From Candidatus Parcubacteria bacterium (GTDB lineage: Bacteria > Patescibacteriota > Minisyncoccia > UBA6257 > HR35), in assembly GCA_025999335.1 (NCBI GenBank), contig AP024681.1:322565-386564 (forward strand): a DNA stretch of 64,000 bases, in the 5' to 3' direction. The first letter of the stretch is position 1; the number at the start of each line of letters is the position of its first letter. The position numbers and the translations under genes are program-made. This document shows, piece after piece, positions 40,309 through 41,747 of the stretch. The notes beneath the pieces were generated by a model, which was not told the DNA's origin, ran no database searches, and worked only from the letters and a program-made list of their open reading frames with translations.

Positions 40309-40983
40309 TTAATATTCTGTTTTGCGAGTTTTTAAAATAAGTTTTATTATATAAATAAAACCAGCAATTACTATCCCGCCAGTCGCTATTAACCAGATAA
40401 GTGCATAGTAAAATAAATAATCAAGATATTTATAAACTATCTTCGGAACAACGACAATAGAAGCAAAAAATTCTACAACTACCGAAAGAATTAAAAATAT
40501 TAAACTAAATATTATACGGATAATAAAGGAACGTTTTATTTTTTTTAAAAAATCATATTTTTTATAGAAACCATAAAAGCTTAATTTTATAAATTTTATA
40601 AATATAAATGCAACTCCTATTACTACGATAAATAATATAAAAAATGGGATAGGAAAATAAGAATTAGAATATAATGCTTTCTCGATCATTGCCTGAACCA
40701 TCAATATGACATAAAATATCCCTATAATAAACAGTGATAATATAACTGGCATAAAAAACCCAAATAAATAAGCAGTTCTTGTTTCTTTTGTTTGATTTGA
40801 GGATTCTGTTTCCTCTAATTGCTGTTTTTTAACTAAATTACTTAAATTTCTGCCTGATAAGTGAGAAATAGTTAAAGTAGATATTAAACACGAACAACAA
40901 CAACAGCAACAAGCACCACAAGTCGGCGTTGACGAACTAACTCTTATTTTTTCATTATCAAACTGGGATATGAGTCGGAGCAT
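40309..40983 (-). CDS. 4-TM membrane protein with N-terminal poly-Cys, streptolysin-S-like segment (candidate TOMM substrate 1)
   Basis: 224 aa. The N-terminus MLRLISQFDNEKIRVSSSTPTCGACCCCCCSCLISTLT has 8 Cys at residues 22-32 (nt 40888-40920). Four long hydrophobic helices follow, separated by basic loops. Confidence 0.75.
   Translation of the reverse strand: MLRLISQFDNEKIRVSSSTPTCGACCCCCCSCLISTLTISHLSGRNLSNLVKKQQLEETESSNQTKETRTAYLFGFFMPVILSLFIIGIFYVILMVQAMIEKALYSNSYFPIPFFILFIVVIGVAFIFIKFIKLSFYGFYKKYDFLKKIKRSFIIRIIFSLIFLILSVVVEFFASIVVVPKIVYKYLDYLFYYALIWLIATGGIVIAGFIYIIKLILKTRKTEY
40915..40983 (-). repeat. 69-nt exact direct repeat, copy 1 (5' end of the Cys-rich ORF)
   Basis: Identical base for base to 41679-41747. 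Identity begins at the ATG, and the 5' flanks differ. Confidence 0.9.
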
Positions 40984-41024
40984 ATTTTTATATAATTCTT
41001 TGTTAATAATAATAAAAAACTATT

Positions 41025-41747
41025 TTAATAAATTTTAACTTCATCGTTGCCATTAGATTTAAAATGTCGATTTTTCAAAATAAAGTTTATAGTTATATAA
41101 ATAAATCCAATAATCGCTATACTGATGATTGATATTAAAGATATTATTATGTAACGCTCTAACAAAGTAAGATTAAATAATAATAGTCCAATAAAGAAAC
41201 CGGTAGCAAAAAATTCTATAGTACCAGCAAGAGCTAATAATCCGATATTGTTAATTATGATTTTGATTAAAGTAGAAAGCTTTGTTGTTTTAAAAAAATC
41301 ATATTTTTCGTTGAAACCATGAAGACTTAGTTTTATAAATTTTATAAGCAGCAATAAAACAATTATTGCTGTTGCATATAATGATGTACCATAAAAGATA
41401 TCGGGAGTAAGAAGATATTTTCCATTTTCAATTATTGTTATAATTGCAGATAAAGTTATTATTATTACAGCGCCCGTTGTTACAGCAAGCAATGATACTA
41501 TAAGTAACATAAAAAAGCCGAAAAGATAAGCGCTTTTAGTTTCTTTTACTTCAATTGATGGCGTTGCTTTCTCTAGTTGCTGTTTCTTAACTAAATTACT
41601 TAAATTTCTACCAGTAATATGCAACACAGCTAGAGTAGATATTAAGCACGAACAACAACATGAGCAACAGGCACAAGGACCACAAGTCGGCGTTGACGAA
41701 CTAACTCTTATTTTTTCATTATCAAACTGGGATATGAGTCGGAGCAT
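41025..41747 (-). CDS. 4-TM membrane protein with N-terminal poly-Cys segment (candidate TOMM substrate 2)
   Basis: 240 aa. The N-terminus MLRLISQFDNEKIRVSSSTPTCGPCACCSCCCSCLISTLA has 8 Cys at residues 22-34 (nt 41646-41684). It is a paralog of 40309-40983. Confidence 0.75.
   Translation of the reverse strand: MLRLISQFDNEKIRVSSSTPTCGPCACCSCCCSCLISTLAVLHITGRNLSNLVKKQQLEKATPSIEVKETKSAYLFGFFMLLIVSLLAVTTGAVIIITLSAIITIIENGKYLLTPDIFYGTSLYATAIIVLLLLIKFIKLSLHGFNEKYDFFKTTKLSTLIKIIINNIGLLALAGTIEFFATGFFIGLLLFNLTLLERYIIISLISIISIAIIGFIYITINFILKNRHFKSNGNDEVKIY
41679..41747 (-). repeat. 69-nt exact direct repeat, copy 2
   Basis: Identical to 40915-40983. Confidence 0.9.

Follow-up and report, generated by a model that had tools for sequence, protein, structure and literature searches.

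Why should two neighbouring genes for membrane proteins open with the same 69 nucleotides (nt) when the rest of their sequences has drifted apart? The question is raised by a locus within a 64,000-nt stretch of Candidatus Parcubacteria bacterium DNA (GenBank assembly GCA_025999335.1, contig AP024681.1, positions 322,565 to 386,564), hereafter the window. The two genes, which we call B (41025..41747) and A (40309..40983), lie in tandem on the minus strand and were taken from the list of open reading frames (ORFs). Gene B encodes 240 amino acids (aa), in which a leader and a poly-Cys module are fused to a transmembrane (TM) body; gene A, its paralog of 224 aa, carries the same N-terminal module on a diverged four-TM body. 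We consider it likely, judging from the sequences and the models built on them, that the cytoplasmic N-terminal tail of both proteins is a substrate for polythiazole formation on a membrane protein, with leaders that gene conversion has kept matched. What is unusual here, and goes beyond the initial annotation of this DNA, is that the 'precursors' are obligate integral membrane proteins beside which no exporter or protease is conserved.

The paralogous genes and the enzymes beside them

Direct comparison of A and B bears out the pattern that the initial annotation had described, namely a base-for-base identity of the first 23 codons that starts at the ATG between differing 5' flanks. The leader copies at 41679..41747 in B and 40915..40983 in A, both on the minus strand, comprise codons 1-23 (MLRLISQFDNEKIRVSSSTPTCG) and are identical over exactly 69 nt, and the base preceding each ATG is already different. 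This 69-mer occurs exactly twice in the window, and the longest other exact match between the two genes is 23 nt. The ~37 codons that follow had been said to differ by a few substitutions and a 2-codon indel; over codons 24-58 we count ~8.5 non-synonymous and 10.5 synonymous changes, plus the 2-codon indel in the Cys patch. By blocks of 20 codons the nucleotide identity falls from 100% to 89%, 78% and 70% and reaches 39-50% over the first TM helices, with a partial recovery at AYLFGFFM, IKFIKLS, KYDF and EFFA; the islands that had been picked out amid drifted helices are really conserved. The proportion of synonymous differences (pS) in the rest of the gene is ~0.46-0.49, and zero changes at the ~16 synonymous sites of the leader would then have a probability of ~0.5^16, or ~1e-5. 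The identity of the 69 nt is therefore far beyond chance, and protein-level selection alone does not explain it.

The identical leader is the first part of a longer module. In A this N-module (40840..40983, minus strand; residues 1-48) consists of a leader (LxxQFD...TP), a Cys-rich core from C22 to C32 and a Ser/Thr-rich stretch that runs to GRN. The core reads G23-A-CCCCCCSC, giving eight contiguous heterocyclisable residues after the Ala. The N-module of B (41598..41747, minus strand; residues 1-50) has a Cys patch with the 2-codon insertion. The product of B is identical in sequence to 'hypothetical protein KatS3mg097_361, Candidatus Parcubacteria bacterium' (P0003 in our set). We predict the N-module of A to be the substrate of an azole synthetase, the genes for which lie directly downstream.

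The modifying enzymes for which the initial annotation had read the N-terminal segment as a target are indeed encoded next to A and B, as HMM, fold and alignment evidence agree. On one strand the operon has the order B-A-C-D-B', that is, the two substrate genes followed by a C protein, a YcaO protein and a dehydrogenase, with gaps of 41, 119, 127 and 4 nt. The SagC/McbB-type C protein (39362..40189, minus strand; 275 aa) has an N-terminal domain resembling the recognition element (RRE) of enzymes for ribosomally made, post-translationally modified peptides (RiPPs), an E1-like domain and CxxC...CxxC motifs. Its profile matches, to TIGR03882 and TIGR03603, are weak, and phmmer against the sequences of the Protein Data Bank (PDB) returned nothing meaningful; only the fold search was informative. 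An AlphaFold2 (AF2) model with a predicted local distance difference test (pLDDT) score of 83.6 shows three N-terminal strands and three helices, the layout of an RRE, followed by the E1-like domain. Its best PDB matches in Foldseek are the cyanobactin heterocyclases LynD (4v1t) and TruD (4bs9), MccB, and the microcin B17 synthetase component McbB (6gri/6gos), with E-values from 2e-14 to 1e-8. Among C-protein homologs C178 and C181 are invariant, and C253 and C256 are kept in at least 90%.

The second enzyme is a SagD-like YcaO cyclodehydratase (37978..39234, minus strand; 418 aa), which matches PF02624 at 2.2e-37, above the Pfam cut-off. It matches the SagD-type model TIGR03604 at 4.8e-54 with 183.7 bits (curated cut-off 219) and the McrA-type YcaO family TIGR03266 only weakly, with 58 bits (cut-off 365). 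The third is a SagB/McbC-type flavin mononucleotide (FMN) dehydrogenase (37251..37973, minus strand; 240 aa; PF00881 at 2.1e-14, TIGR03605 at 2.6e-18 with 66 bits against a cut-off of 78.4). It aligns to McbC (6gos_C) and to BmdC, placing K175-Y176 opposite K201-Y202 of McbC. From this evidence the three genes are predicted to form a complete 'BCD' azole synthetase, which we call divergent because all NCBIfam scores are below the curated cut-offs. The locus itself would be a cluster of the thiazole/oxazole-modified microcin (TOMM) or linear azol(in)e peptide (LAP) kind, since it holds a YcaO protein, an E1-like partner with an RRE-like domain, a Lys-Tyr dehydrogenase and an adjacent substrate gene with a leader and a Cys/Ser/Thr core. 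B and A are probably co-transcribed with the three enzymes, as the gaps are short and a terminator scan had no match in any of them. The same scan gave two minus-strand matches inside gene A, with counts at the level of shuffled sequence, and a promoter scan of the locus likewise gave counts equal to shuffles.

Conserved head and variable membrane body

A direct search with A alone found three proteins (A, B and one ortholog), and a word-indexed search with the family alignment, in which 8,000 candidates were scored, yielded 25 matches. An exhaustive HMM search over 1.84 billion representative proteins expanded the family to 89 clusters at 50% identity, with gene B matching the family profile at 1.8e-109. 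In all 89 the match begins at residue 1, QFD occupies residues 7-9 and the head contains 7-10 Cys. The consensus is M-[IL]-[KR]-L-V-[TS]-Q-F-D-[ND]-E-K-x-[RK]-x-S-[VL]-A-T-P-T-C-G-x-C(7-10)-[IVL]-x-[ST]-T-...-I-[TS]-A-R-N-[FL]-G, within which Q7-F8-D9, ATPTC and the Cys run are near-invariant. Mean pairwise identity is 53% over residues 1-48 and 23% over the rest, for which shuffled controls give 20%. Across the 89 clusters and more than 20 loci it is thus the head that is conserved and the body that is near-random, as expected if the N-terminal segment is a recognition sequence plus core. This comparison among relatives had been proposed in the initial annotation, which named a variable head on a conserved TM body as the contrary outcome; the data show the opposite of that arrangement. 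Complete stand-alone short forms are absent from the 89 clusters: the four shortest members are a contig-end truncation (P0065), an 88-aa protein with two TM helices (P0095), and the fragments P0035 (75 aa) and P0050 (107 aa). When A, B and sets of 10 or 72 family members were scanned against Pfam and NCBIfam, no consistent family emerged, only sub-threshold noise. A full-text literature search did not find a description of the family, which speaks for its absence from the searchable literature and is not proof of novelty.

Behind the head, family members continue with a polar linker of variable length and mostly three or four hydrophobic helices. The body measures 93-236 residues and full-length members 141-284 aa. 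A window scan splits the TM body of B into five hydrophobic segments. For A, AF2 gives a model made of helices only (pLDDT 75.8), for which no structural neighbour was informative. The sole conserved feature of the TM bodies is the Glu of a VEFFxW-like motif, which lies toward the outer end of a helix that follows a Lys/Arg-rich loop. In A this intramembrane Glu is held by the EFFA motif of the third TM helix (40462..40473, minus strand); a motif of the type xxVEFFxW occurs in nearly all of the 83 full-length members, and about 70 have a Glu at the equivalent position. We considered the TM body as a CPBP/SagE-like protease and dropped the idea, as it has no EExxxR or HxxxN/D motif and no HMM match. 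A separate observation concerns six members (P0030, P0032, P0042, P0047, P0058 and P0079) that carry an extra C-terminal tail after the last TM helix, with a zinc-ribbon-like CxxC...CxxC arrangement in the sequence KKCPKCGTEN...CxYCS; one of these members has a weak match to the Pfam family zf-tcix.

Counts of Lys plus Arg under the positive-inside rule favour a cytoplasmic N-terminus, by 14 to 3 for A and in 73 of 82 members of the family (614 versus 109 residues overall). The possibility that the Cys/Ser/Thr stretch is itself a true TM helix preceding the others was discarded, because the positively charged leader would then fall outside the cell.

For the genomic context, loci were gathered through C-protein homologs and by a genome scan with the leader pattern. 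A gene for a head-TM protein lies directly beside those for YcaO, the C protein and SagB in 20 of the 20 non-redundant loci with enough flanking sequence; the exceptions are two contig-end truncations (L014 and L018) and one degenerate locus (L026). With PRE for the head-TM gene, three orders occur, C-PRE-D-B, PRE-D-C-B and PRE-PRE-C-D-B, here with B for the dehydrogenase, and they are spread over at least five lineages: Patescibacteria (Komeilibacteria, Saccharibacteria and others), metagenome-assembled genomes (MAGs) of gut Bacilli, Clostridia, Propionibacteriaceae and Desulfovibrio. All-against-all clustering of the flanking ORFs in the 20 loci recovered only these four families as recurrent, with no conserved protease or ABC transporter. 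The resemblance to multi-precursor RiPP loci that had been suggested for A and B extends to relatives, as tandem pairs of substrate genes also occur in L007/L008, L011 and L029, each with reduced pS in the leader.

This context bears on whether the poly-Cys head is an enzyme substrate at all. The TM proteins could instead be accessory, serving in immunity, transport or metal and redox functions, with a small unannotated ORF as the actual precursor; runs of Cys are capable of binding metals, an intramembrane Glu is conserved in the TM body, and TOMM clusters often include membrane immunity proteins. A search of 19 loci for a second Cys-rich precursor (ORFs of at least 20 aa with at least 7 Cys per 12 residues) found none, and the other ORFs reported, from a threshold of 4 Cys per 12 residues upward, contain no more than 4-5 Cys and do not resemble the family. 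We therefore dropped a separate small precursor. The layout of the head, with an invariant leader-like motif right before the Cys run as in streptolysin S (SLS) precursors, and the concerted evolution of leaders within one genome, which fits a single shared recognising enzyme, also stand against a purely accessory role. We consider such a role highly improbable and treat the head as the candidate substrate.

Origin of the identical leaders

The initial annotation had offered recent gene conversion or nucleotide-level constraint as causes of the leader identity, and a third sequence allows the two to be separated. A sister species (locus L001), whose C protein is 87% identical, has a single-copy ortholog that we call O (L001:780-1652). 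Over leader codons 1-23, A and B have 0 synonymous differences at 16 sites, whereas each differs from O at 8 of ~15.5-16 synonymous sites (pS 0.52) with a ratio of non-synonymous to synonymous change (dN/dS) of ~0.07. The amino acids of the O leader are kept except for three replacements, at residues 21-23. In the TM body pS is 0.46 for A-B, 0.45 for A-O and 0.46 for B-O, and dN/dS is 0.5 for A-O and 0.7 for A-B. This segment-wise comparison, also suggested in the initial annotation, shows a leader strongly conserved as protein: dN/dS of the N-module against the ortholog is 0.07-0.08, compared with 0.5-0.7 in the body. Because the three bodies are equally diverged, yet the two leaders in one genome are identical, the comparison supports gene conversion as the source of the A/B identity. 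The other tandem pairs show the same tendency, with leader versus body pS of 0.12 versus 0.66 in L007, 0.35 versus 0.78 in L011 and 0.35 versus 0.72 in L029. In L007 there is a 62-nt identical run, which recurs in the independent assembly L008.

Of the two proposed causes, conversion thus stands, and constraint falls with the same counts. If the first 69 nt were held fixed as a regulatory site, as a signal for the initiation of translation or by a structure in the RNA, this would suit an identity that begins exactly at the ATG. The synonymous turnover between species, however, excludes such constraint, with a leader pS in the ortholog as high as that of the body. The 69-nt RNA has no structure and folds worse than its shuffles (z = +1.75), and the segment with its flanks has no Rfam match. 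We leave this explanation hardly any probability. An artefact of assembly or consensus building, in which reads were collapsed or mis-threaded, is only slightly less remote. It could draw on a locus of a 99.6%-identical strain in a second assembly (L030; L030:1-130), where the contig ends within the B-type flank and 46 nt of the upstream flank of B are joined through the leader to the body of A, so that either assemblers are misled by the repeat or there is a deletion variant. Each body is unique and has diverged from the other, and so both genes exist. The pattern also recurs elsewhere, in the shared 62-nt run of L007 and L008 and the reduced leader pS of L011 and L029, and the identity ends at a codon-level indel in the Cys patch, as a conversion tract would.

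Taken as a conversion tract, the leader copy in A is probably also a substrate for unequal recombination. Ortholog O combines a B-type upstream flank, including the start of a divergently oriented TIGR00375-family gene, with an A-type body and downstream flank, and the joint in L030 has the same composition. The 69-nt repeat appears to mediate loss of a copy, B being deleted by recombination between the leaders. In L030, whose contig stops 46 nt upstream of the start codon, the assembler may equally well have jumped through the repeat. A homopolymer of eight A inside gene A (40539..40546, minus strand) corresponds to A7 in the ortholog of L001 (L001:~1380-1390), which is frameshifted; adding one A restores a full-length ortholog of 247 aa, and A7 is found in contigs from at least four sequencing runs.

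The surroundings of the operon have their own features. The TIGR00375-family gene, with a PHP-like N-terminus, lies at 41843-43120 on the plus strand and is divergent from B. It is present in L001 and absent from the more distant loci and is, for this reason, probably outside the system. At the other end a tRNA-Pro(GGG) gene (37170..37245, plus strand; ARAGORN, and 68 bits to Rfam RF00005) lies 6 nt away from where the SagB-type gene ends; it belongs to the context and not to the system. Beyond it, at 29647-36879 on the plus strand, a predicted surface protein of 2,410 aa starts with a signal-like segment, contains long Thr-rich linkers and carries at its C-terminus two repeats resembling peptidoglycan-binding domains; its GC content (38-39%) is above that of the surrounding DNA. 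The GC content of the operon (25-33%) matches the flank beyond A and B and gives no compositional sign of recent transfer or insertion. Elsewhere, in a MAG of the gut Bacilli (L009:12982-14807), the cluster has relaxase and Mob_Pre genes at a distance of ~5 kb, a hint that a mobilisable element carries it, in keeping with the patchy spread over several phyla.

Comparison with known systems and fate of the tail

Several known systems share parts of this arrangement, which would operate in the manner of an azole synthetase of the streptolysin S or microcin B17 type. Streptolysin S (SagA with SagBCD; TIGR03602-03605) also pairs a discrete C protein with a YcaO protein and an FMN dehydrogenase; its precursor starts with a leader, after which come a contiguous run of Cys and then Ser/Thr, and loci with two precursors occur occasionally. 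SagA-type precursors are, however, soluble peptides of ~50 aa with a C-terminal core, whereas here the core is internal in a protein of 150-300 aa with three or four TM helices. The leaders differ too, with LxxQFD here in place of the FXXXB motif of SagA-type leaders. The streptolysin S model TIGR03602 (cut-off 35) gives 17.2 bits for A, no match for B and 17-20 bits for other members, through the Cys run. Cox et al. 2015 (PMC4603692) found a CaaX-like protease and ABC transporters in all SLS-type cytolysin clusters that they identified, and all precursor cores identified there have a Gly and at least 10 contiguous heterocyclisable residues. In our family the core follows G-x-C(7-10) and then [IVL]-x-[ST]-T, which is similar without strictly reaching 10. 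With TIGR03602 below its cut-off, a membrane protein as substrate, and neither a CaaX-like protease nor an ABC transporter recurring in the 20 loci, the family falls outside the SLS cytolysins in the definition of Cox et al. (PMC4603692).

The synthetase of microcin B17 (McbA with McbBCD; 6GOS/6GRI) offers a McbB-like fold of the C protein, a dehydrogenase to which ours aligns with its Lys-Tyr pair, and a substrate with a leader and a heterocyclisable core. McbA is a soluble peptide of 69 aa that is exported by McbEF and processed by TldD/E; here the substrate is a membrane protein and there are no export genes. Precursors with NHLP or Nif11 long leaders and those of bottromycin with its follower resemble A and B in having a large or C-terminal non-core part, or paralogous precursors that share the recognition part. 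The NHLP and Nif11 domains, however, are soluble and N-terminal to the core, and in bottromycin a short follower is itself the recognition element. Here the extra part is a polytopic membrane domain at the C-terminus, almost without sequence constraint. Thioglycine formation in McrA by YcaO-TfuA is a further parallel, as the backbone that a YcaO protein modifies there belongs to a full-size protein and not to a small, exported peptide. That reaction is a thioamidation which needs neither a C protein nor a dehydrogenase, and its substrate is a soluble enzyme without a leader.

Set against these systems, the likely course of events at our locus would be as follows. B and A would be polytopic inner-membrane proteins whose ~48 N-terminal residues form a cytoplasmic module like an SLS precursor. 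The E1-like C protein would bind the LxxQFD leader through its RRE domain, YcaO would cyclodehydrate the Cys and perhaps Ser/Thr residues to azolines with ATP, as members of its family do, and the FMN dehydrogenase would oxidise the azolines to azoles. This would leave a contiguous polythiazole on a tail tethered by a flexible linker to an anchor of three or four TM helices, itself constrained only in hydrophobicity and in one intramembrane Glu. Gene conversion would keep the leaders of both paralogs matched to the single recognition protein.

Whether the modified tail remains on its anchor is a separate question. We lean toward a product that stays tethered, at least initially, because no protease or exporter is conserved, no free short forms occur and the topology is predicted to be cytoplasmic. 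More tentatively, and with confidence well short of even, we suggest that the mature product is a membrane protein that permanently bears a polythiazole on its cytoplasmic N-terminal tail and acts in cis at the membrane of its producer; RiPP enzymes would then have yielded a membrane protein with a heterocyclised backbone. The polyazole head, rigid and hydrophobic on its flexible tether, might serve as a plug or gate for an oligomerised TM body with its conserved Glu, as a membrane-inserting anchor, or as a contact-dependent cytolysin once exposed.

A released toxin is a less probable fate but a serious rival. The N-module would then be a genuine RiPP precursor, to which the TM body would add no more than carriage, a follower function, self-immunity or export; once the rings were in place, a housekeeping protease would cut near the ARN[FL]G boundary and/or after the leader, and the free streptolysin-S-like polythiazole would act on cells other than the producer, such as the host on which an episymbiotic Patescibacterium lives. 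The resemblance of the core to SLS-type cores, with sub-threshold TIGR03602 matches in several members, agrees with such a role, and so does the conserved ...I[TS]ARN[FL]G boundary with a variable polar linker behind it. Sporadic spread over several phyla and tandem duplication are typical of conflict systems, and the relaxase and Mob genes near one locus fit the same picture. However, no protease or exporter is conserved in the 20 loci, as opposed to the SLS-type clusters of Cox et al. (PMC4603692), and none of the 89 clusters includes a complete stand-alone short form. The predicted topology keeps the head in the cytoplasm, and the core is conserved across phyla to a degree above that usual for arms-race toxins.

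Several points weigh against the proposal of a modified, membrane-bound tail as a whole. The heterocyclisation of the Cys run is something that we infer. The YcaO, SagB and SagC scores are all under the curated NCBIfam cut-offs, and the family leader is without the FXXXB motif, the residue four positions after F8 being usually K or R. The N-in topology is derived from the positive-inside rule only, and the unmodified Cys/Ser/Thr stretch is itself moderately hydrophobic and helical in the AF2 model of A. A polyazole that faces the cytoplasm is without obvious function, and neither exporter nor protease is conserved. Finally, close relatives have frameshifts, in the precursor and YcaO genes (the latter split) of L001 and in the C-protein gene of L030, which may reflect decay of the cluster in some lineages, phase variation at homopolymers or sequencing error.

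RiPP azole synthetases are known for small exported peptides, and mining pipelines accordingly seek short precursor ORFs. The search of Cox et al. 2015 (PMC4603692) considered precursors only among ORFs of less than 150 aa with a Cys/Ser/Thr-rich C-terminal half and would, with these limits, miss the genes described here. At least 89 clusters, from Patescibacteria, Firmicutes, Actinobacteria-like bacteria and Desulfovibrio, begin a polytopic membrane protein with a leader and core and do without a dedicated protease and exporter. Should the tail be modified as proposed, YcaO/BCD chemistry would extend to membrane-protein substrates, a simple four-gene system would be at hand for testing an RRE-dependent enzyme at the membrane, and a streptolysin-like module might prove to act as a tethered effector in episymbionts with minimal genomes. 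The locus also offers a clean natural case of gene conversion restricted to the leader, which supports co-evolution of the leader with its recognition protein and would keep several such proteins serviceable by one set of enzymes.

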